A DNA stretch of 64,000 nucleotides from a virus (Duplodnaviria; Caudoviricetes), in IMG/VR virus record IMGVR_UViG_2513237329_000013, positions 1 to 64,000 of that record; one strand, written 5' to 3'. The position numbers and the translations under genes are program-made. The notes beneath the pieces are model-generated. The model was not told where the DNA came from. It made no database searches and was given only the letters and a program-made list of their open reading frames with translations. Positions 3,979 to 52,778 of the stretch are shown piece after piece. Every line of letters starts with the position of its first letter. Within the stretch, counting starts at the first letter, position 1.

Positions 3979-4380
3979 TTACTTGTCCTCCTTTGCTCCG
4001 ACTAAATTTGCAATATAAAGTAAAACATCAATATCAGCGTTGAAAAACTCATGATTCCAAAGCCAATAATCTTCATATTCTGGCCTTTTGTATTGACGGC
4101 ATTTTGGATCTGCCCAGACCTTATCCCATCGGATCTGATAATTACCATCACGCTTAGAAAGTGTTTTTTGAATGGTCTGAGTTAATTTGCCACGACGCAA
4201 ACCGCACTCGTCATCGTTTCTCGCAAAAAACTGATGAGCATTTTCACTTGTCGTATAACAAACAGGAAGACCGTTGTAATAAATAACACCGCAGATTTCT
4301 TCACAAATAGTTGTCGCTGGAATATTTACGCCACCGCAAATAGCAGTGTCCTTCAATCTTCTATGTACAATGTACTGCAT
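3979..4380 (-). CDS. Hypothetical protein directly downstream of the DGR RT
   Basis: 133 aa ORF overlapping the RT 3' end. Confidence 0.7.
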   Translation of the reverse strand: MQYIVHRRLKDTAICGGVNIPATTICEEICGVIYYNGLPVCYTTSENAHQFFARNDDECGLRRGKLTQTIQKTLSKRDGNYQIRWDKVWADPKCRQYKRPEYEDYWLWNHEFFNADIDVLLYIANLVGAKEDK

Positions 4381-5542
4381 CTTTTAATCTCTCCATTGCT
4401 CTGAAATTTTCTATGTTTTCTGCTGAAAAGCCATAGATAGCATAAAAGAGCCGTCGCAGCCTCAACACTCGTTGATGGTTTTGGTAGCTCTCTAAATACG
4501 CAAGCATTCCATTTACAGAAGTCCATAAATCCTCGTAGGACATTTCTCCGTTCTGGACTTTCTCGTAGAATGTTTTGATTTTGTGTCTGGTACGCTTGAA
4601 GCTTCCTCGATTACCAGTCACAATAACACGACCGCTTTCCGTCAAGATATATTTCGCCTTACAATAACGAAACGGTTTGGAGAGCGGAACAATTCTGGAT
4701 TTTTCTTTACTAATTGTCAGATCCAGTTCTGACGCTTTTTGAACAATGAGACGCATGATCTCCTTTGGGTCTTGATTCGGAGGAACTATGATATAGTAGT
4801 CATCCATATAATGACCAGCGCATTTAATAGAGAGCTGGCATTTAATGTAGTTATCGAGCGGAGATGGAAAAGCAATCATTTCAGCCTGACTTGGCTCAAC
4901 TCCAAGCGGCATACCTTTATCGCTGGTGCTTGATGCAACGATATCATCACCAAGCTTGCGTAAATCATAATCATGAATCAGCTTGTCATGACGAGCATAA
5001 ATAACGCGATGCGATGCACTCGGAAAGAATTGCTTGCAGTCTAAAAGGATTATGTTTCCATTTCTCCCATAGCGCTTAAAATGATAATGCAAGTCCTCAC
5101 GCAAAAGTCTTTTAGAGAAATGAAAACCTTTGCCTGGAAGACTTGCTCCGTTATTCCAAATCATATCTGGCAGATATAAAGGTAATAGGACTTTCTTTGT
5201 GTAAACCTTATGTATCTGCCTGTCTTGAATACGAGGTGCGTCAATTGGTCTTGTTTTGCCGCGCTCGGAGATAACAAAATGAACATATGGACATGGCTTC
5301 CACATTTTATCCAGCAGTAATTTTCTCCGCCGCGCCGTGCCAGAAAACAAGTGCATTTCAAATCTTTGTGCGCTATTCTTCCAGCGTACACCGTTGCAGC
5401 ATTGCTTTCCTGCTTTGTATAAGTCGCCATAGGAAAATACATCTGCCATTGTTCCTACAGCAAAGCTTCGTTCTTGTTTCTTGCGCCATCTCTCGGCTTT
5501 CCGTCTTTGGAATCTTGCCTCATGACGCTCTTTGCTTGTCAT
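4361..5542 (-). CDS. DGR reverse transcriptase
   Basis: ERGKTR.I, DRQIH, G..LG..SQ and YMDD motifs; next to TR and avd. Confidence 0.96.
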   Translation of the reverse strand: MTSKERHEARFQRRKAERWRKKQERSFAVGTMADVFSYGDLYKAGKQCCNGVRWKNSAQRFEMHLFSGTARRRKLLLDKMWKPCPYVHFVISERGKTRPIDAPRIQDRQIHKVYTKKVLLPLYLPDMIWNNGASLPGKGFHFSKRLLREDLHYHFKRYGRNGNIILLDCKQFFPSASHRVIYARHDKLIHDYDLRKLGDDIVASSTSDKGMPLGVEPSQAEMIAFPSPLDNYIKCQLSIKCAGHYMDDYYIIVPPNQDPKEIMRLIVQKASELDLTISKEKSRIVPLSKPFRYCKAKYILTESGRVIVTGNRGSFKRTRHKIKTFYEKVQNGEMSYEDLWTSVNGMLAYLESYQNHQRVLRLRRLFYAIYGFSAENIENFRAMERLKDAVHCT

Positions 5543-5775
5543 AAATAGTTATTCGCCTTTCGTACAGTTGTAATATAGAGTGCGCCTAAACTGCTTTGCC
5601 TTGACACATGAAATAGGATTAAGCACAATATCCTCCCACCATGCAAGAAGCGTCCGTGCAAAAGCATCAAAAGAGCGGTTTCGGGTTTTATCCACGGGAA
5701 ACATTTCTCCTTTCGCAAAGGTCTCCGTCATCCTCAAAAGGACTACCGTATTTGACCATACCTAAAAAGGGTTGC

Positions 5776-11364: not shown

Positions 11365-12465
11365 TCAGATCGTAACCTTATAGGTGTTTGAAGCGTCGTT
11401 GGCGTTCGCCATATCCATCACATACACCTTATAAGACTTGGCCGTGTAACCATTTGCGCCCTCAACATCGACGGTGTACTTGGTAAACGCGGACTTGATC
11501 TCAGCATTCATGCCATTCACATCCTGCACAGAGTTCACATCACGCAGCGTCGCTGGGTAAGCGAACACAACGCGGATTGCCCCGACAGGAATTGTGATAC
11601 TGAAACTGTTGCCGACAGCAAGCGCTCTGCCACTCTTTCCGGAGAGACCACGCACCAGTGCAGAATTCACCTCGCCGTCCTTTGCGGTCAGAGTGCCATA
11701 GAAGCTATTACGATAGCCGGAAATCTTGCTCTTTGTTGCAGACTTTGTACCGGCTTTGATCTGGCCTGCGGCGTAATTCTTGCCAAGTGCAGTCTGCGGC
11801 ATAGCGCCGTCCGCATAAGTCGCCTCTGCAGTGATAGAATAAGCCGTGTTGTCTCCGACCTGAATCTCGTCAAATGTGCCGCTGGCTGTTGTCTTCTCGC
11901 CGCCGTCCGTGTTAGTCACTTTCCATGCGGAAGCGACAATACCGGTAGCCTTCGGTTCAAATTCATAAGAGCCAGGATTCAGAACGGCAGAATAGTCCGG
12001 AGACACCTTTGTGCCGACCTCATAAGCCTTGATCTTAGCCGCAGTCAATGTAACACTCGGCTGAGTTACAGTTGGGTTCTGATCTTCTGCGAAAGCGTCA
12101 TTCAGAAGCTCTGTCAAAGTCTTATCCTTTGCTGGAACTGTGACCTTGCCTCCGACCGGCGTATACTTACCAAACTGATATGTAAACACCAGATCTTCTT
12201 TGAACACAATATCGTCTGTTGACGATCCACCGAATAGCTGTACCCATGCACTGCCCGTCCAAATCTCACCAACCTTGGTGTCCGTATTAACATACAGAAC
12301 GCCAATGGCAGGAGTTGCCGGTTTTTCACCAGTGTATGTACGAACTGCCTCGGTAAAGAGATCTGCACCAAAGTAAATCTCTCTTGTGTCCGTACAAAGA
12401 TAAAACGCATTTTCACGGACTTCTGGCAAATTTGCTTTCAAGCCCGTATACACAAAATGAGCCAT
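11365..12465 (-). CDS. Minor structural or fibre-like protein
   Basis: Beta-rich; N-terminus shared with 9639-10976. Confidence 0.65.
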   Translation of the reverse strand: MAHFVYTGLKANLPEVRENAFYLCTDTREIYFGADLFTEAVRTYTGEKPATPAIGVLYVNTDTKVGEIWTGSAWVQLFGGSSTDDIVFKEDLVFTYQFGKYTPVGGKVTVPAKDKTLTELLNDAFAEDQNPTVTQPSVTLTAAKIKAYEVGTKVSPDYSAVLNPGSYEFEPKATGIVASAWKVTNTDGGEKTTASGTFDEIQVGDNTAYSITAEATYADGAMPQTALGKNYAAGQIKAGTKSATKSKISGYRNSFYGTLTAKDGEVNSALVRGLSGKSGRALAVGNSFSITIPVGAIRVVFAYPATLRDVNSVQDVNGMNAEIKSAFTKYTVDVEGANGYTAKSYKVYVMDMANANDASNTYKVTI

Positions 12466-12539
12466 TATCTTGTTCTCCTTTCTTGTTATTTAGCTTACAG
12501 AATATTTACAAAAAGATAGCGCTACTCTTTCTGCACAAA

Positions 12540-12908
12540 TTAAAAACTGCCAATCATATCTGCAATGACCGCTGAAGATGTGGCAACACTGTCTTCAACA
12601 ATGTCATCCTTACTACCGTTAGACGGAACGCTATATGTCTTAATCAGACCTGCGCTGATCCATGTAAGCTTGACATTATCTCCGTCATTTTTAACATAGA
12701 AAAGATCGTCCTTTAATGTCTCACGCTCATCATCATCTGACGTGATCTTCCATGTTCCGTCGATATTGTAAACGCCAGTAGATAAGCTTGAAATAACAAT
12801 ACCAGAGCCGCTAATGTTTGTTACCGGCTTGTTGGAAAGCTGGTCGTAGTTAGAAACTCCGCCTGTTCCGCCGCCAGAACCTCCACTCCAAAAAGGAATA
12901 TCACTCAT
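12540..12908 (-). CDS. Hypothetical tail-region protein
   Basis: Gly-rich start and NYDQLSNKP motif common in fibre proteins. Confidence 0.6.
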   Translation of the reverse strand: MSDIPFWSGGSGGGTGGVSNYDQLSNKPVTNISGSGIVISSLSTGVYNIDGTWKITSDDDERETLKDDLFYVKNDGDNVKLTWISAGLIKTYSVPSNGSKDDIVEDSVATSSAVIADMIGSF

Positions 12909-41700: not shown

Positions 41701-41730
41701 CAAAAAACTCAGAGCAAAGCACTCTGAGTT
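41701..41730 (-). terminator. Terminator ending the tRNA cluster
   Basis: AACTCAGAG/CTCTGAGTT stem then TTTTGTTTT just after tRNA-Lys. Confidence 0.75.
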
Positions 41731-41734
41731 CATT

Positions 41735-44804: not shown

Positions 44805-44869
44805 AAGTAAAATTGGCGCTGTCATCCATTCAGACAGTCATTAAGTCGCAGTACGTTGTGACACCAATA

Positions 44870-44944
44870 TGGCTGGAACGATAGGACTCGAACCTACAAC
44901 CCTCCGATTAACAGTCGGATGCTCTACCATTGAGCTACGAACCA
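44870..44944 (-). tRNA. tRNA-Asn(GTT)
   Basis: TCCGA-CTGTTAA-TCGGA; two U-U mismatches in acceptor stem; CCA. Confidence 0.87.
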
Positions 44945-45113
44945 ATATTCTCACCGAGACGCAACATCATTTACACCCAATAGATAAAATCAAACTCATC
45001 TTTTATGTATAGAAATTTGAAGTTGCTGTAAGCGTCTCTAACAACTGCAAGGCACTTATGTACTTTCTATTATCCGCAAGAAAATCCTCCAAAGTTGCTG
45101 CGTGTGCCTTTTA

Positions 45114-45189
45114 TGGTCTGAGTAGCTGGTCTCGAACCAGCGACCTCGTGATCCCAAATCACGCGCTCTACCTACTGAGCTATACCCAG
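45114..45189 (-). tRNA. tRNA-Pro(TGG)
   Basis: CGTGA-TTTGGGA-TCACG; CCA. Confidence 0.92.
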
Positions 45190-45199
45190 ATTTGCTTTT

Positions 45200-45251
45200 G
45201 AGAGAATCAGTAAAAGCAGCATCGCCACGAGCAGGCTTCTCTCCTGATGCC
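45200..45251 (-). ncRNA. Minimal HDV-like (theta-type) self-cleaving ribozyme
   Basis: P1 GGCAUC/GAUGCU with G1.U wobble, P2 GAGAGAA/UUCUCUC, P3 GCC/GGC with loop UGCUCGU, P1.1 GC/GC, no P4, J4/2 CUGA. Confidence 0.8.
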
Positions 45252-45252
45252 G

Positions 45253-45667
45253 TGGAGCAGAGGGGAATCGAACCCCTGTCCGAAATTCCTACATGAACAA
45301 AACATTCTTACGCAATAGATAACAATTTGCATTTTGTCCTAAGACGAGCTGCGTGGTGCTATCAACCAGCTCAGAGCCGCACCAGTTTTGCGACCTCCAC
45401 CACCTTATTTCTTTTCACAGTGATAAGGAAAACTGCAATGTCAGTCTGATTCTTTATTACCGCAGATGCTTACCCAGACTAAAAGTGCATCGTTTAAGCA
45501 TTCATCAACTGCAATTAAGCAGCAATACCCTCCATAACAGCATACAGAGCGGGATGAATCATAACCACAATAGAATCGTTGTCATTTCATTTTTGTTTGA
45601 GCCTTAGGCGGTCTCCATACCTGCGTATTTCGTCCTATCAAAACCCCGTCGAACCCATTACTGCCCC
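45253..45667 (-). ncRNA. ssrA: tmRNA
   Basis: 5' GGGGCAG..GGUUCGACGGGG; 3' GGGGUUCGAUUCCCCU-CUGCUCC-A with G3.U70; internal tag frame ending GCU GCU UAA. Confidence 0.93.
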
Positions 45668-45680
45668 ATATTTAATTTTA

Positions 45681-45756
45681 TGGTCGGAGTAGAAAGAGTC
45701 GAACTTTCGACCTCACGATTATCAGTCGTGCGCTCTACCTACTGAGCTATACTCCG
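45681..45756 (-). tRNA. tRNA-Ile(GAT)
   Basis: CACGA-CTGATAA-TCGTG; CCA. Confidence 0.92.
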
Positions 45757-45871
45757 AAATAGACCATGCGTCCGTAGAACCTCGTCTGCAGCAGATAGGT
45801 TTTTAGCTGGAATAGCAGTCAAGTAATGAACTGAACCGCACAAACGCCAACATAACCAACATGGCACGATT

Positions 45872-45947
45872 TGGTGGAAACAATGAGAATCGAACTCACG
45901 ACCTCCTGCTTGCAAGGCAGGCGCTCTCCCAACTGAGCTATGTCCCC
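45872..45947 (-). tRNA. tRNA-Ala(TGC)
   Basis: G3.U70; loop CTTGCAA; CCA. Confidence 0.93.
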
Positions 45948-45991: not shown

Positions 45992-46798
45992 TTAGGAGCT
46001 AAAAGCGGGGGCGAGGCCAAAAGAACCCCTGGCGTCGCCGGTGCCCGCGTTGCCGTTCGCGGACACACCGCAGAAGGTGCCGCTGGCGTCGTAGCACGGA
46101 GAACGCAACAGGTTACAACGACGATTTCCGTCATCATCTTCCTTATAGTAAGGAACATCCTCTTGCTTATAATATTCGTACCAATGCCCCTCGCCAGGCA
46201 TCGAATAGAAACAACGACCATACAGCTCTTTCTCGCTCTTGAGCCAAATCTTACAAACGCTCTTGATAATTTCCTTACTGCAATCGCCAGCGCTTGTAAG
46301 TTTAACAACCGGCTTAATAATTGCCTGCAACTCATCAGAGCAAAGAGAGAAGAACTCCGTATCCAGCCTACGTCTTACAACAGAAGCTTCATATCCGCCG
46401 CAATTCGTACTTTCGTCGTTCCACGACCAGTCCTCGTTGTAAACTCTGACCATATCCCAAGAGAGAGGTGCTTTTCCAGTCCCATCAGCAAGATCATCAT
46501 GGTTAAATCCGATAATCTGCCACACAGCAACAAATCCGTTCTTCATGTGGTCTTTCTTTTGTGCGCCAAGCGCAAATACTTCACGCGCCTTACCAGACAA
46601 TCCGATCTGATCAATTTCACCCCAAGAAAGATGGTTCAAATCCTTCAAAGGCATTGCAAGCGGCGCTTTACAAACAGTGTCAACAATATGTTCACTCGCC
46701 AAGCTATCATCGAAACTGAGAGTCACAGCATCGCCATCACAGACGATATTCATTGCCGAAAATTTGCTAAGATCCTTTGTTGCAATTTTGAACTGCAT
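45992..46798 (-). CDS. DGR target 2: stand-alone CLec-like (DUF6273-like) protein
   Basis: Shares LN..SW..I, I.GFNH, N.GG....R and L.A...P motifs with the target 1 C-terminal domain; ends in VR2. Confidence 0.9.
   Translation of the reverse strand: MQFKIATKDLSKFSAMNIVCDGDAVTLSFDDSLASEHIVDTVCKAPLAMPLKDLNHLSWGEIDQIGLSGKAREVFALGAQKKDHMKNGFVAVWQIIGFNHDDLADGTGKAPLSWDMVRVYNEDWSWNDESTNCGGYEASVVRRRLDTEFFSLCSDELQAIIKPVVKLTSAGDCSKEIIKSVCKIWLKSEKELYGRCFYSMPGEGHWYEYYKQEDVPYYKEDDDGNRRCNLLRSPCYDASGTFCGVSANGNAGTGDARGSFGLAPAFSS
46002..46106 (-). repeat. DGR variable region VR2 (remote)
   Basis: Gap-free match to TR 5777-5881; 23 mismatches at TR adenines and one silent C>T by hand count. Confidence 0.95.
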
Positions 46799-46842
46799 GA
46801 AACACACCCCTATAAAAATTATTTTGCTAATTCCTTAGAAAG

Positions 46843-47471
46843 AAAATTCAATACTTGAATCATACCTATCATTGAGCCTTCGCTCTACCTCCATTACCTT
46901 CTCACAATGTTCAGCCACCAGGGAGATAAGTCTGAGCTTCAAGGAGCGACCTTTAACTTCTTACCCCAGCCTTACACAGCGAACTGTATTAGGCCAATTC
47001 CTGCGCGGGATTGTTTACCCGCAAATTTCACCGTTCGTTCAGAAAATTTGATAGTTTCATACAATTTCTTTTTCATCATATCGTATTAAAGATCAAACAC
47101 CAAAACTGTCCTACGGCTACTTTAACCGACGACTTTCGTTATAGTCGAGTTTCTTCGACATCAAGACAGGAGCGCATTGTTGGCATTTCCTCTGGTTGTA
47201 CTGGTTGCCACGCCAGTATCCTTGAGGATTATTCTCCACAGGAGCGTCTATTGCTGCGCCCGAAAGTTCCGTGCTTTTTGTAGCGATAACTCTTGGCAAC
47301 ACACATTTTCGTTGGCAGTTTCCGCCTCCCAGCAATACATCACTGCATCACTGCCGTCTGGACAATAAAAGGTATCCCTCGTAAATCCAGCGGGAACTAT
47401 TGTGCGTCTCGGAGTGCTGACACACTTTATTCACCGAGTTAATCATAAGCATGATTCAAATATTGAATTTT
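46843..47471 (-). ncRNA. Large ornate ncRNA, ROOL-like (about 630 nt)
   Basis: No credible ORF; about 30-bp terminal helix joins the two ends; many internal hairpins including a UUCG-capped one; size and tRNA-cluster context fit ROOL as I recall it. Confidence 0.68.
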
Positions 47472-47589: not shown

Positions 47590-47618
47590 AGTATAACATA
47601 TAAGCACACGGTTGTCAA
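47590..47618 (-). promoter_or_regulatory. Near-consensus sigmaA promoter for the RNA cluster
   Basis: TTGACA-17-TATACT with extended TG, 33 nt upstream of tRNA-Thr. Confidence 0.8.
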
Positions 47619-47756: not shown

Positions 47757-48041
47757 TCATTCTCGAATACTTCTTAAAAGTTCTGCTCCGGACTTAAACA
47801 CGACATTCTGGAACTCCGGAACAACGATGCTCTCTTTCGTCACTGGATGAAGAGCTGGATGCGACTTATACTTTTTCACATCAAATGTTCCAAACCCATA
47901 AATCGAAACTCGATCTCCGTTTCTAAGAGCATTCGCAATTTCATCAAAGATATCGTCAACGATATCCTTGACCATATACTTCTTATACGCCTTATTCTTC
48001 TGAGCAAGCGTATTTACCAAATCTGCTTTATTGATATTCAT
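47757..48041 (-). CDS. HU/IHF-family DNA-binding protein
   Basis: NKADLV..LA, V.IYGFGTF, HPVTKESI.VP, VFKSG. Confidence 0.92.
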   Translation of the reverse strand: MNINKADLVNTLAQKNKAYKKYMVKDIVDDIFDEIANALRNGDRVSIYGFGTFDVKKYKSHPALHPVTKESIVVPEFQNVVFKSGAELLRSIRE

Positions 48042-49276
48042 GCTGATGTATCGCTCCTTTGCGGGCGATAACGAGTCGTATCAAAGTCAATATCGTAAAA
48101 TGCTTTGACACCATTATAATCACAGACGCAAACCAACTGTTGCTGCGCTCCATAAATGCGCTTTCCAACACAGTAGTCATCCATACCGAGAAAGCTGCCA
48201 GCCATAATCGTTTTCACGCCTTGAACACTATCGGTCTTATTGTGATGCAAATGACCTGAAAGAATGGCGTACACAGGTTCTTTTGCCATTGTCTGAAGCG
48301 ATTGAACTTTTCCAGCAGATCCATCATAATCGCCATGTACACCAAGATAAGTCTTGCCGCGAATATCAAGCAAATACATCGTATCGTCGATCTTTCTGTA
48401 ATGATCAAACGACACATTCTCAAAAGATTGTAGACGAGCTTTCAAATACCACTCAACTAAATCGTCAAGACGCTCATGAATCGAGGCAACATCTTTCTCT
48501 TCAAGCCGAGAATGATTCCCAGCAACAGAAGAAAAGTAAACATTCTTAAAGTACCGGCTTAATGTAGACAAAAACTCCGCAAGAAGTTCAGACACTCCAA
48601 CGACCTGTTGAATAACATTTTCTCTGTTCGACACGGCAATAGACTTATGAATATTTCCGCTAATCAAGTCTCCATTTGCCCATACATAACAACTTTCCGA
48701 TCCATGCAAGGCGGAGATTTCAAGGATGCGATCCAGATATTCATTAAGAAGTTGCACACAAACATCGGAATTATAGTAGTTCCAATAGTTGTCCACACAC
48801 GCTCCAAAATGCAAATCGTTTAAGCTTACAAGCAAATCGCTCCCGCTCGACTCCATTACACATGGAACATAGTCAAGCCGAGGAATTACACCAGAAGTAA
48901 TTGCCCTCTCAAAAATATCAGAGTTTTCATCCTTGCGAGCCAGGTCACGCACAACTTTATTAAGAGCATTTCTCTGGTCGAAAAACCGCTGGCGTTCTTT
49001 CTTGAATTCAAGCATCTTCTGCTCAATCTCGTCAAGATATGCACTTCCGAGATCTTGCGTAGCTTTCTGCTTGAAGTATTTCATCACATGATAGCCAGAA
49101 TACGGCGTTACATTCGCCGCTTTACGAAGGCTGTCGTAATGAACATCAAGACCAAGCAGGTCAACGATATCCGACCACTCTAAGTCAGAAGGGTTCTGCT
49201 CAACCTTTATTTCAATCAGTCGTAGGCCATACTCATAACTATCTTCGTTTTCAAGCTGTTTATATTTTGGATTCAA
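48038..49276 (-). CDS. Calcineurin-like metallophosphoesterase with N-terminal helical domain
   Basis: DLHFG, GDLI, GNH, HGD and GHLH motifs. Confidence 0.88.
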   Translation of the reverse strand: MNPKYKQLENEDSYEYGLRLIEIKVEQNPSDLEWSDIVDLLGLDVHYDSLRKAANVTPYSGYHVMKYFKQKATQDLGSAYLDEIEQKMLEFKKERQRFFDQRNALNKVVRDLARKDENSDIFERAITSGVIPRLDYVPCVMESSGSDLLVSLNDLHFGACVDNYWNYYNSDVCVQLLNEYLDRILEISALHGSESCYVWANGDLISGNIHKSIAVSNRENVIQQVVGVSELLAEFLSTLSRYFKNVYFSSVAGNHSRLEEKDVASIHERLDDLVEWYLKARLQSFENVSFDHYRKIDDTMYLLDIRGKTYLGVHGDYDGSAGKVQSLQTMAKEPVYAILSGHLHHNKTDSVQGVKTIMAGSFLGMDDYCVGKRIYGAQQQLVCVCDYNGVKAFYDIDFDTTRYRPQRSDTSA

Positions 49277-49476
49277 TATTCATTCCTCCCATCATTGGGC
49301 GGCAACTGAATACTGCGGCGAATTGTCAGAGTAACGCCAACAACGCCGTCCCAGCGTTTTAACAGCTCTAAAAGGCTGTATGTTCTTACGGAATCAGTAT
49401 CATATTCTGTGATTGTCATATCACTGGTGTCAATTATGGCATTTTCAAAGCTTTCGCTTTTAACCACCATTGACAT
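49273..49476 (-). CDS. YonK-like small protein
   Basis: ITEY......YSL.ELLK.WDG; same gene order as SPbeta yonK-yonJ. Confidence 0.65.
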   Translation of the reverse strand: MSMVVKSESFENAIIDTSDMTITEYDTDSVRTYSLLELLKRWDGVVGVTLTIRRSIQLPPNDGRNEY

Positions 49477-49711
49477 TATGCTTTCCTCGCTGCTGAATGA
49501 TTCGTTTGCGACGAATCTCACGCTCTCGATCAATCCGTGCAACAATTTCGGCGGCGAGATGGTTCGTACTCGCAATCGCCCTCATGTTTCCTTCACTCTC
49601 TGTTGCGTAGTAATGATGCCGCTTTGAATCCTGCATCATTGTTCGCGTCACCTTGTACTCAGGATACAATTCTCTGAGAATACGAGATTCTTCCTTAGTT
49701 ACTGGAATCAT
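49460..49711 (-). CDS. Hypothetical protein
   Basis: 83 aa; RBS; overlaps next gene. Confidence 0.7.
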   Translation of the reverse strand: MIPVTKEESRILRELYPEYKVTRTMMQDSKRHHYYATESEGNMRAIASTNHLAAEIVARIDREREIRRKRIIQQRGKHNVNGG

Positions 49712-50003: not shown

Positions 50004-52778
50004 TCATGCGACGCTACGCTGACGTCGTTTCTTCTCACGCTCATAATTGCGAATATGGATAGCCTGACAGTCATCGCAGCGCTTCTTATTTTTCACGATA
50101 CCGTCTACCTCAAACTCTTTTCCACAATCAATACACCGCAGTTTCTTTTTGCCGAGTGGGTGATATCCAGAGCAGCTCGTACATACCTTTTGCTGCGGTG
50201 AAAGAGGAACAAAACGCTCTCCACATTTCTTGCACTGAATAGAACCATCTGGGATATTTCGCTTGAGGTTTTCCAGAACGATATCACCAAAGCACATCCA
50301 GAAAACATTTTTCCTACGGCTATTCTTACTATGAAATAGATATTTCACAAGAATGTCGCAAACATCTAAGCGCTCAAGACAAATCTCGTCGAATTGCTTC
50401 AAGATATTGTCCCGAATATATGCAAAGTTCGAGTCATCATCATAAAAGCTGATCGAATAGCGATACTGCTTTTCCACATCATTGTACAGGTCAGTCACAG
50501 ACGATAGTAACTCAACCTGTTTCATCGGGTTACTAAGCATATACTGATATCTGAAGACACCAATATTCTTCGCGGCAAAAGACATCCGCTTATTAGGAAC
50601 GATGTGTTCAAGCTGATTCACAACACTATTGTTCATTCGCTGAACCTGAAATTTTGTTTTCTTTTTAGCGTGGATAAAAAAATGCGGCGCTTTCATACTC
50701 GTAATTCTTGCAAGACGAGCATTGATTTCATCTGGTCGAGTTGGCTTATACAGCGTCTTGGCATAGTCGATACAGAAGTTATTCTCCATACATAAGATTT
50801 TAATTGCTTCTATGTCAACATCCTCACCGTTCCAAATCTTCGTAATATCATTGCTAATAACACCGATATTGCCACCAGTCCATGCGGCGCGAAGCCCTTT
50901 GAAAATTTCCTCTGGTGTAATCGTAACAGCGCCAGCCTTTGCCATCTCGTAGTATAAAGGAACGATTCCTTCCATATTGCGCTCAGCAATAGACACAAGT
51001 AAGGAATCAGCGCATACGAGACTTTTATCTCCGTCGCAATCAAATTGTAGGATCTTTGAAATTAGATCATGACAGCTCGTATAGATAGCATTTTGAGAAA
51101 ACCACTTTTTCGTTGCACTGGTTACAACATTTTTACGAACAGCATGTTCACGATATAAGTGGGGTGAACGCAGACAGTCCAATTTACTCACTGTGCGATA
51201 AAGATAGCAAGACACCTCTCCATCTGCAAGCAAGCCAACAGGACTGCGATTTCCAAGAAACAGCCATTCGCAGAAAGCATAGAGATCTGGAATCAAGAAC
51301 ATATACTTTGCGCTCAAATCAATCTTTGCTGCTCTTGCCTCAGTAACAAGATTCTTCTTGATTTGCCGTAGCATCTCTTTTGTGTATGGGTCGGAGAGCA
51401 ATTCCGGATAGATACTAAGACACTCCTGAAAAGCATTCTTATTGCGATACTGTGTAGAAGCCCCGAACACATCCAGCATAGTATTCTTATCCGATGCAAT
51501 TTTAGCAATTTTGTCAATCGTCTTTCCAGCAAGCTGCTCAAGTTCATCTGTACTCAAATCTGTGAGTGTTTGAAGCATTTGATAGTTAAGCTTTGCATCA
51601 GGAATGAAGTCCTCTTCCTCATTACACTTACCGACAGTGCATCCATTTGCTAAAAACAAATCAATGTACTCTTGCCAATTCGCGTAATACTTGTACATCT
51701 TAAATTGACTTTTTGTAAAAATGACCTGGATACCCTCTGCGATTACATCATGTTCAAAACCATAGATGTCTGTTACCAAACCATGATTTACGGACGGATC
51801 GCGTTCGTTTGATTCTAAGATAAACTTATCAAACGGGAATACAGCAAGAAGCCCTTTTACCCACGGAAGACGAACCATAGTGTTTTTTGCATTACAAGAG
51901 GGAAGAACCATTCCGCAGCCATCCGTATGTGTAATTGGAATCTCCATATCTCTGCGCTCAACACTGTATGTTTTGTGATCAATAAAATCAACAGTTCCAC
52001 CAACCATCGTTTCCATATCATCTACAACGATAGTCTTTCTAATATCGAAATCTTCCCACAAATCAGTTGCGCTATTGCACAGTGCAAGATACGCCAGATA
52101 CTTATTGATATTGATTCCACCAAGCTCGTTGATTTTTTGAACGCTCAGTCCACACATAATGGTTTTTTGATACTTCTCCCAAACTCTTTCCTTAATGAAA
52201 ACAGTTTTCTTTGTTCTGATCTGTCCAGCAGATGCCGTAAAACAAATGTAGCGTTCTCCGTTAAAGGTATACCCATTTAGGATAAGATCTTCAATCACAT
52301 CGAAATAATATGTGCGAATAACCATGAAATCGTCATACAGCTTTCCTGTTTCCATGCCAAGTGTTCTTGTAAGCATCGACTCAAAAACAGAAATCACATT
52401 CTTATCAACCACATATTCAGTCCGTAACTCACGTTGCGAGCGATGTGCTTGAAGAAGTGATACAAGTTCAGACTTCTTAATCTTAATCATCTGGTTCGTA
52501 CCGCGAATTTCTTTCGCAATCTGTTTTACACGGGAACTATCCATCGCAACAGAAATCGGATCTGACTTTCCCATGCCATACAATTTACGAAACTGAGATT
52601 CAGCCTTCTCTTGTGTTATTTCTCCAGCACACAGCCGCTCAATAATTTCTCGCTCTGATTTTAATTTCGATTTTGAAGAGCAGTGCTTATTGATCTCAAC
52701 CTCAAGTGCCTTTTCTTCGTCGGTGTAAAACGCACTCGTGTCAAAACTATAAATATGGATTTGCCGATCAAGACTAAT
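50004..52778 (-). CDS. YonO-like single-subunit RNA polymerase with C-terminal Zn ribbons; probable ATT start
   Basis: TASAGQIR.KK, TDGCG, RLPWVKG, RSPH and catalytic DCDGD; frame stays open 65 codons upstream of the listed TTG. Confidence 0.88.
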   Translation of the reverse strand: MSLDRQIHIYSFDTSAFYTDEEKALEVEINKHCSSKSKLKSEREIIERLCAGEITQEKAESQFRKLYGMGKSDPISVAMDSSRVKQIAKEIRGTNQMIKIKKSELVSLLQAHRSQRELRTEYVVDKNVISVFESMLTRTLGMETGKLYDDFMVIRTYYFDVIEDLILNGYTFNGERYICFTASAGQIRTKKTVFIKERVWEKYQKTIMCGLSVQKINELGGININKYLAYLALCNSATDLWEDFDIRKTIVVDDMETMVGGTVDFIDHKTYSVERRDMEIPITHTDGCGMVLPSCNAKNTMVRLPWVKGLLAVFPFDKFILESNERDPSVNHGLVTDIYGFEHDVIAEGIQVIFTKSQFKMYKYYANWQEYIDLFLANGCTVGKCNEEEDFIPDAKLNYQMLQTLTDLSTDELEQLAGKTIDKIAKIASDKNTMLDVFGASTQYRNKNAFQECLSIYPELLSDPYTKEMLRQIKKNLVTEARAAKIDLSAKYMFLIPDLYAFCEWLFLGNRSPVGLLADGEVSCYLYRTVSKLDCLRSPHLYREHAVRKNVVTSATKKWFSQNAIYTSCHDLISKILQFDCDGDKSLVCADSLLVSIAERNMEGIVPLYYEMAKAGAVTITPEEIFKGLRAAWTGGNIGVISNDITKIWNGEDVDIEAIKILCMENNFCIDYAKTLYKPTRPDEINARLARITSMKAPHFFIHAKKKTKFQVQRMNNSVVNQLEHIVPNKRMSFAAKNIGVFRYQYMLSNPMKQVELLSSVTDLYNDVEKQYRYSISFYDDDSNFAYIRDNILKQFDEICLERLDVCDILVKYLFHSKNSRRKNVFWMCFGDIVLENLKRNIPDGSIQCKKCGERFVPLSPQQKVCTSCSGYHPLGKKKLRCIDCGKEFEVDGIVKNKKRCDDCQAIHIRNYEREKKRRQRSVA

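Follow-up and report, generated by a model that had tools for sequence, protein, structure and literature searches.

The DNA analyzed here (hereafter the window) comprises the initial 64 kb of a 127,251-bp virus record, IMGVR_UViG_2513237329_000013, which IMG/VR places in its provirus class and which is 96% complete. The minus strand of the window carries an array of 21 tRNA genes running from 47724 to 41735 (ARAGORN), and a gene for a transfer-messenger RNA (tmRNA) is an internal member of this array, on the same strand and in the order tRNA-Ile, tmRNA, candidate ribozyme, tRNA-Pro. Every one of the 21 tRNAs encodes its CCA (N-CCA in the DNA), the tmRNA being the sole tRNA-like gene without it, and directly behind the tmRNA lie 52 nucleotides that parse as a minimal ribozyme of the hepatitis delta virus (HDV) type. 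We propose that this theta-type ribozyme most likely makes the 3' end of the phage tmRNA, a role published so far for phage tRNAs only. Ribozyme-made 3' ends would thereby be extended from phage tRNAs to the RNA of ribosome rescue.

Theta ribozymes are minimal HDV-like ribozymes of gut Caudoviricetes, in which they abut tRNA 3' ends (Kienbeck et al. 2024, PMC10879173). Four of them cleave in vitro in an Mg2+-dependent manner, and a C-to-U change abolishes cleavage (PMC10879173). In the survey that described them, a theta was counted as tRNA associated when its cleavage site lay within ±5 nt of a tRNA 3' end, just 4.5% of the theta-linked tRNAs encoded CCA, 42% of the occurrences had no neighboring tRNA, and theta-bearing phages were enriched in DRB0094-type ligases and tRNA nucleotidyltransferases (PMC10879173). 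The paper and its preprint never mention tmRNA, and neighbors were detected with tRNAscan-SE only (PMC10879173); since tRNAscan-SE cannot see tmRNA, the survey could not detect tmRNA partners, and some of the published thetas without a tRNA neighbor may belong to tmRNAs or to other tRNA-like RNAs. In the literature that could be searched, no paper on phages connects tmRNA with ribozymes that are HDV-like or self-cleaving, in agreement with an earlier reading made from the letters of this DNA (the sequence-only reading), which knew of no tmRNA-linked case.

The tmRNA gene and the fold at its 3' end

The tmRNA matches the full length of the Rfam model RF00023 (model positions 1-374) with 86.5 bits, against a gathering score of 47. 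As read from the Rfam alignment and the sequence, its acceptor region is tRNA-Ala-like, with a G3.U70 pair, a discriminator A at 45253 and the T arm, and the internal tag frame ends in MEGIAA followed by a stop (frame-0 translation). Use of the tmRNA in tagging is suggested by G3.U70 together with the -IAA end of the tag frame. The acceptor arm ends in CUCC followed by A (45253) and C (45252), the next base being G (45251); after A-C the sequence continues with G-G, and the terminal CCA of the Rfam model is aligned to C-G-G. The sequence-only reading had given a tmRNA end of CUGCUCC-A-C and an encoded CCA in all 21 tRNAs, and both are read in the sequence. ARAGORN made no call of the tmRNA at 45250-45667, even with relaxed settings and a lowered threshold. 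Because ARAGORN misses this RF00023-positive tmRNA, phage tmRNA surveys that use ARAGORN only will undercount such genes.

We ruled out that the gene is a host ssrA at a prophage end, as it lies 45 kb inside the record and within the same-strand array of 21 tRNAs. Phage-encoded tmRNAs have been reported in mycobacteriophages and in huge phages. The tmRNA of the window resembles phage tmRNAs generally in its position inside a phage tRNA array and in a tag frame that ends in alanines, but differs from them in having no encoded CCA and no phage SmpB and, on our reading, in an end made by a ribozyme in cis. In blastn searches against 50,697 phage records, tRNA-Pro was the only match, and the tmRNA and the ribozyme were found in no cultured relative.

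The 52 nucleotides that follow the tmRNA parse without mismatch as a nested double pseudoknot (Table 1) of 18 helix pairs (6 + 7 + 3 + 2 bp, in canonical order), in which P3 is joined directly to P2 and to P1. G1 (45251), the first base of the predicted 3' cleavage product, pairs with U 45218. L3 has 7 nt, UGCUCGU, and two of its bases, 45232-45231, pair with 45217-45216 to form P1.1 as a G-C plus a C-G pair. J4/2 begins with C 45210, the candidate for the catalytic cytosine. The scissile bond is predicted between 45252 and 45251, which places G1 one base beyond the tmRNA discriminator and the cut at +1 from it; the partner here is a tmRNA, whereas the published ±5-nt criterion was written for tRNA 3' ends. 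An alternative register with a 7-bp P1 starting from C 45252, which would cut exactly at the discriminator, was rejected, as it loses G1 and P1.1. The sequence-only reading had described a 52-nt nested double pseudoknot with G1.U, a 7-bp P2, P3/L3, no P4 and a CUGA segment, all of which is recovered in our parse; the range that it gave, 45200-45260, does contain the ribozyme but also takes in the 9 terminal nt of the tmRNA, the ribozyme proper being 45200-45251.

Table 1. Features of the tmRNA-ribozyme junction, its surroundings and the distant repair-like genes (window positions unless marked as genome positions)
Feature	Position	Strand	Remarks
Phage tmRNA up to C74	45252-45667	-	Rfam RF00023 match 45250-45667
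Putative minimal P4-less HDV-like/theta-type ribozyme, 52 nt	45200-45251	-	Descriptor parse, 0 mismatches
P1, 5' strand	45246-45251	-	Pairs with 45218-45223, 6 bp, closing G1.U; G1 = 45251
J1/2	45244-45245	-	2 nt
P2, 5' strand	45237-45243	-	Pairs with 45200-45206, 7 bp
P3 and L3	45224-45236	-	3 bp, 45236-45234 with 45226-45224; L3 45227-45233
P1, 3' strand, then P1.1, 3' strand	45216-45223	-	45218-45223, then 45216-45217
L4, then J4/2	45207-45215	-	L4 45211-45215 (5 nt, no P4); J4/2 CUGA 45207-45210
P2, 3' strand	45200-45206	-	Descriptor parse
Spacer and tRNA-Pro	45114-45199	-	Spacer 10 nt (45190-45199); tRNA-Pro 45114-45189, CCA encoded; ARAGORN, Rfam
tRNA-Ile	45681-45756	-	13 nt upstream of the tmRNA 5' end
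Terminator-like hairpin	41705-41731	-	12-bp stem and T run, right behind the last array tRNA
Promoter-like site	47590-47618	-	11/12 consensus positions, TG present; could drive the array; consensus match only
HU-like protein	47757-48041	-	Adjoins the array
Mre11/SbcD-like exonuclease, 412 aa	48038-49276	-	phrog_284, 178 bits
YonK	49273-49575	-	SPbeta-type gene set beside the array
YonO-type RNA polymerase with RNA-dependent RNA polymerase fold	50004-52583	-	47-51% identity to SPbeta, phi3T and Clostridium phage D-1873
RNA ligase, 479 aa	within genome 93460-96759		phrog_968, 218.7 bits; weak DRB0094 and T4 Rnl2 similarity
Pol-beta nucleotidyltransferase, 274 aa	within genome 93460-96759		phrog_388; family of >3,000 uncharacterized proteins
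Polynucleotide-kinase and HD phosphohydrolase protein, 338 aa	within genome 93460-96759		Kinase E = 3e-11 to Clostridium thermocellum Pnkp kinase structures

Compared with the commonest published theta, the element has the same order of parts and equal lengths of J1/2, P2, P3, L3, P1.1 and J4/2, with a P1 of 6 bp instead of 7 and an L4 of 5 nt instead of 6. The helices are also comparable in stability (P1, -6.5 versus -7.1 kcal/mol; P2, -7.8 versus -6.0 kcal/mol). As in the thetas, the predicted cut adjoins a tRNA-like acceptor end; the Bacillota host phylum and the gut habitat fit, and the phage encodes an RNA ligase of the type enriched in theta-bearing phages. The differences are the tmRNA partner, one flipped P1.1 pair, CUGA in place of CUAA and a cut after C74; furthermore, nothing in the phage indicates recoding, and CCA is encoded in each of its tRNAs. 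With HDV, CPEB3 and the drz families, the minimal drz-Mtgn included, the element shares the nested double pseudoknot, the G1.U pair at the cut and a C as the first base of J4/2, whereas the absence of P4 and a total of 52 nt set it apart from HDV in general. Its L3 differs at only two positions from what we take to be the L3 of genomic HDV. In the processing of HDV and of retrotransposons, it is the 5' end of the downstream RNA that is produced, whereas the job proposed here concerns the 3' end of the upstream RNA.

In the descriptor that we wrote for these searches, P1 has to begin with G and to have 6-7 bp, J1/2 may have 0-4 nt and P2 5-8 bp. P3 has 3 bp and encloses an L3 of 7 nt (U-S-S-N-C-G-N), P1.1 consists of two Watson-Crick pairs, L4 spans 3-40 nt, and J4/2, with C as its first base, spans 3-5 nt. 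This descriptor has a single match on both strands of the 127,251-bp genome, namely 45251-45200 (-), and 0 matches in 200 dinucleotide-preserving shuffles of the genome. One stray match occurs in 2.06 Mb of other loci, mostly cellular DNA, and lies in GC-rich sequence. Relaxed versions of the descriptor add just two sites, both implausible and within coding DNA.

Recurrence of the junction in other phages

In IMG/VR, searching for the exact core returned 11 near-identical contigs, all from the phage clade of the window. With a looser pattern, consisting of a tmRNA T-loop and acceptor end with the L3 motif 15-25 nt downstream, each match being put through the descriptor, a complete ribozyme beginning at the tmRNA end was obtained for 23 of 64 matches in viral contigs, for 4 of 120 in metagenome contigs (one of them dubious) and for 0 of 121 in bacterial and archaeal genome contigs. 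Excluding the clade of the window and the dubious match, these amount to 12 distinct further ribozymes. An Rfam tmRNA above threshold ends at the ribozyme start in L020, L023/L029/L031, L024/L036, L028, L032, L040, L042 and L057, and ARAGORN calls the tmRNA in five of these lineages. The sequence-only reading had suggested a motif search behind phage tmRNAs as a check, and the junction is found in 12 other distinct sequences. The fold, the predicted cut that this reading had placed between 45252 and 45251 and the link to the tmRNA 3' end hold up, and the arrangement recurs in unrelated phage lineages.

Some of these records carry further elements. In L023 (1-9775 of an IMG/VR record with a tmRNA-theta pair), CCA is encoded by none of the 23 tRNAs and a C stands right after the discriminator in 23 of 23; this lone C runs into A/T-rich sequence, as it does for most tRNAs of L032 and L028. 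A lone encoded C74 may thus be the rule in these phages, matching the A-C end of the tmRNA in the window. L028 holds, besides its tmRNA-theta pair (4162-4543), another theta, unlike the first, immediately behind a tRNA-Pro (2644-2789). A GOLLD RNA lies at most 1-2 kb from the tmRNA-ribozyme pair in three other lineages (L023, 7898-8381; L024, 269-682; L057, 7568-7981), and L040 has a group I intron match at 12282-12663.

Base pairing in the other members is supported by covariation. We aligned nine thetas from outside the clade of the window (eight behind tmRNAs, one behind a tRNA) with a model-based method and scored the full pseudoknotted structure: 96% of the cells are paired and both sides change at 15 of 20 pairs, values that 0 of 500 shuffles matched and that compare with 27-46% paired cells in slid controls. 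P1 shows compensatory change at 6 of 7 pairs, although it was not modeled as pairs when the alignment was built. Among 16 ribozymes parsed with the descriptor, each helix position has 2-4 pair types; this table is circular because the descriptor itself requires pairing, and the independent control is the contrast between 23/64 and 0/121. P1.1 is CC/GG in 11 sequences and GC/GC in 5, from three lineages including the window, which amounts to a compensatory flip. The GC/GC version that had struck the sequence-only reading as a departure from the usual CC/GG is indeed present but is less unusual than was thought, the L023 and L057 lineages having it too.

The conserved core is likewise complete in the window. 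G1 is found in 16 of 16 compared ribozymes, closing P1 as G.U in 11 and as G-C in 5, and a C occupies the first J4/2 position in all 16. The window has every invariant column of a 15-sequence alignment, that is, the middle P3 pair and the U, C, C, G and U of L3; this MAFFT alignment misaligned the helices and was therefore used for invariant core columns only. L4 has 5 nt in the window and 6-8 nt in most other minimal members. Based on the fold, on its uniqueness in the genome and its precise location, and on the repeated occurrence of the junction, all read from sequence, we consider it probable that 45251-45200 (-) is a self-cleaving minimal HDV-like (theta) ribozyme that makes the 3' end of the tmRNA.

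A candidate route to the mature end and the RNA-repair-like genes

When an HDV-like ribozyme cleaves, the upstream RNA ends in a 2',3'-cyclic phosphate and the ribozyme starts with a 5'-OH. From this chemistry and the position of the fold, we infer a route that comprises cleavage, a defined tmRNA end, healing and CA addition. The tmRNA would be transcribed as an internal member of the array (Ile - tmRNA - ribozyme - Pro), and the emerging ribozyme would fold into the nested double pseudoknot. With catalysis by cytosine 45210 and Mg2+, the 2'-OH of C74 (45252) would then attack the phosphate that follows, releasing a tmRNA that ends in the discriminator A and a C with a 2',3'-cyclic phosphate (A-C>p). 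The ribozyme would keep a 5'-OH and stay attached to the tRNA-Pro leader until RNase P cuts, which would free a 62-nt fragment. Removal of the cyclic phosphate, followed by addition of C and A by a CCA-adding enzyme, would have to precede alanine charging and SmpB binding, and the kinase-HD protein of the phage (Table 1) is a candidate for the healing step. An extra step of this kind would be required because the RNA-catalyzed cut leaves a 2',3'-cyclic phosphate and not a 3'-OH.

The host route for precursors without CCA consists of a cut by RNase Z at the discriminator and subsequent CCA addition. The proposed route resembles it in that the 3' end created lies at the discriminator or beside it and has to receive nucleotides without a template, and differs from it in that the cut is RNA catalyzed and the first C of the CCA is there from the start. 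The phage genome was searched for PolyA_pol, SmpB, RtcB and two families of 2H phosphoesterases, with no match. Since the phage has no SmpB gene, SmpB must be the host's, and since it has no PolyA_pol-type enzyme, the CCA-adding enzyme is presumably the host's as well.

The phage does encode candidates for work on RNA ends. Outside the window, at 93460-96759 of the genome (loci L303 and L304), three adjacent genes specify the RNA ligase, the nucleotidyltransferase and the kinase-HD protein, the 274-aa nucleotidyltransferase gene (95016-95840) adjoining that of the ligase and the kinase-HD gene occupying 95743-96759, and a gene for a phosphoadenosine phosphosulfate (PAPS) reductase-like protein comes after this cluster. 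Known repair cassettes include the T4 Pnkp with RNA ligase and the bacterial Pnkp. In others, an RlaP nucleotidyltransferase, which adds one or two nucleotides to RNA 3'-OH ends, stands beside RNA ligases (bioRxiv 10.64898/2025.12.29.696909). Like these cassettes, the cluster has an RNA ligase, a Pol-beta nucleotidyltransferase and a kinase plus HD domain side by side. The AlphaFold2 (AF2) model of the 274-aa protein (predicted local distance difference test [pLDDT], 91.8) is closest to Pol-beta folds of the kanamycin nucleotidyltransferase type. The RlaP family PF10127 has no match in the genome at E values up to 1 and matches 1 of 18 homologs of the protein; in its nearest Atlas clusters, 25% of the members have RlaP, and the link to RlaP is weak.

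We regard the HD domain as a reasonable candidate for opening the cyclic phosphate, its link to the tmRNA being a conjecture, and we likewise conjecture that an RlaP-like nucleotidyltransferase might act on the tmRNA end. In a wider and rather unlikely scenario, the phage would need its own RNA-repair enzymes to mature its tmRNA: the ribozyme would leave A-C with a cyclic phosphate by design, the kinase-HD protein would open and remove that phosphate, and the neighboring nucleotidyltransferase or the host CCA enzyme would supply C and A. If this were true, the phage tmRNA could begin to rescue ribosomes only after the phage repair proteins had been made, and an RNA "repair" cassette would in fact be a biosynthetic pathway for a ribozyme-processed RNA. 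Among five other large records with a tmRNA-theta pair, a CCA-adding-type enzyme is present in two (of one phage type), an RNA ligase with a kinase in one, a kinase in one and none of these in one, which fits the published enrichment in a comparison that has no background control. The 412-aa metallophosphoesterase at 48038-49276 was ruled out as the healing enzyme, since it is an exonuclease of the Mre11/SbcD type. How a 2',3'-cyclic phosphate becomes a chargeable CCA end in bacteria is a question that can be addressed at the bench, as the phage has candidate enzymes.

Competing explanations and genomic surroundings

Several observations weigh against the proposal that an active theta-type ribozyme makes the tmRNA end. 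A 6-bp P1 is seen in no other member of the compared set, the third base of J4/2 is G (CUGA) where most members have A, and the predicted cut falls after C74 only in the clade of the window, whereas in 12 of 12 other lineages the cut would fall right after the discriminator A. A search with Rfam over 45100-45350 at E values up to 10 gave no match to the ribozyme, and the element was not retrieved by covariance models R2 (P2+P3) and R3 (P1+P3), built from the nine other thetas; R2 gave a local match of 3.8 bits to the P3/L3 core only, and R3 gave none there at E values up to 10. These models hold no pseudoknots and have few, AT-rich seeds. Because they miss the ribozyme, its membership of the class is argued from structure, position and core bases and not from a profile score, and by primary sequence the copy in the window is an outlier, which may fall outside the published theta descriptor.

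Folding and variation give further adverse points. A competing nested fold of -13.5 kcal/mol exists, the 3' partner of which is transcribed later than P1 and P3. The nested minimum free energy (MFE) is no better than that of shuffles (z = 0.09), and the fold predicted in this way is a different hairpin; the nested MFE is uninformative because the ribozyme is a pseudoknot. The 11 related contigs vary at 2 of 52 ribozyme sites, compared with about 6% in spacers, and they are too alike for selection to be demonstrable within the clade. The two variable sites are 45244 in J1/2, where the change in L010 adds a P2 pair, and 45206 (changed in L005), the P2 position beside P3 that is often unpaired in other members. 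Finally, a contig from an RNA library (44851-45929) crosses the cleavage site unbroken and may represent DNA or an uncut precursor. Low-depth contigs from public runs bridge the site or start near it; since contigs cannot show RNA ends, those from public runs count neither for nor against cleavage. Short high-depth contigs that end at 45252 beside an adapter were set aside as tmRNAs of other organisms, given that 3 of 34 bases differ and that they diverge upstream.

In one rival reading, the fold is a decayed or very slow relic and host enzymes make the tmRNA end, either with RNase Z, which cuts after the discriminator of precursors without CCA, or by exonuclease trimming, followed by CCA addition. 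Bacillota hosts have an RNase Z and a CCA-adding enzyme and could make the end alone, and the 6-bp P1, the G in J4/2, the extra C before the cut, the failure of covariance models of the other members to find this copy and the lack of measurable constraint inside the clade all point the same way. We nevertheless find a relic unlikely: 18 of 18 helix pairs and all invariant core bases are intact, the helix stabilities are comparable to those of the commonest published theta, and the two substitutions in the relatives avoid the core. A 6-bp P1, moreover, lies in the active range of the class, in which a P1 of 6 or 7 bp, a short J1/2 and a P2 of roughly 7 bp are the norm (PMC4908430). That CCA is absent precisely where the ribozyme follows, in a phage with CCA in every tRNA, points to a ribozyme in use. 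The window offers a clean test case, the sole CCA-less RNA beside 21 CCA-bearing tRNAs being the one with a ribozyme behind it.

The ribozyme might also be active but serve mainly for something other than a working tmRNA, either by uncoupling the downstream block of tRNAs from the RNAs upstream or by yielding a tmRNA whose end is blocked by the cyclic phosphate and the missing CCA; until the repair enzymes of the phage act, such a tmRNA might stay inactive or serve as a decoy for the host SmpB or alanyl-tRNA synthetase (AlaRS). By known HDV chemistry, the cut end cannot be charged without two further steps, and the phage has neither SmpB nor a PolyA_pol-type CCA enzyme, yet it has the kinase-HD, nucleotidyltransferase and ligase cluster. 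The theta paper itself leaves regulation as an open question (PMC10879173). We hold such a role to be very unlikely, since the tmRNA retains its G3.U70 pair and a tag frame ending in -IAA, since in 12 other lineages the predicted cut lies exactly at the discriminator, the natural substrate of CCA addition, and since nothing in our analysis speaks for a decoy. A chance resemblance, or a spacer with a weak terminator-like hairpin (45228-45216), is extremely improbable: the terminator scan does give a hairpin of 5 pairs and a brief run of T within the element, and the nested MFE is no better than that of shuffles, but terminator-like matches in the region are at chance level (8 found versus 6.1 expected), the shuffled genomes are free of descriptor matches, and the site lies at most one base from the tmRNA end, as in a dozen other phage lineages. 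The maturation of the tmRNA by a theta-type ribozyme is thus the reading that we retain.

The surroundings of the array (Table 1) are those of a phage that is, judged by its genes, SPbeta-like, and DNA contigs from an animal gut metagenome hold the stretch almost unaltered. Promoter-like sites in the region are as numerous as expected by chance. A full-length ROOL RNA (Rfam, 394 bits) lies within the tRNA array at 46855-47462 (-), flanked by a tRNA-Thr and by an open reading frame of 271 aa with DUF6273 (45992-46807), and the related contig L010 likewise has a ROOL RNA (403 bits). At 5535-5760 (-), an RT-2 RNA motif reaches 130.9 bits (gathering score, 40). Among the spacers of the clade, the one of 169 nt that separates tRNA-Pro from tRNA-Asn, 44945-45113 (-), is the most variable (16 of 169 sites), and 19 of the 75 sites of tRNA-Asn differ, as though some contigs had acquired this tRNA by exchange.

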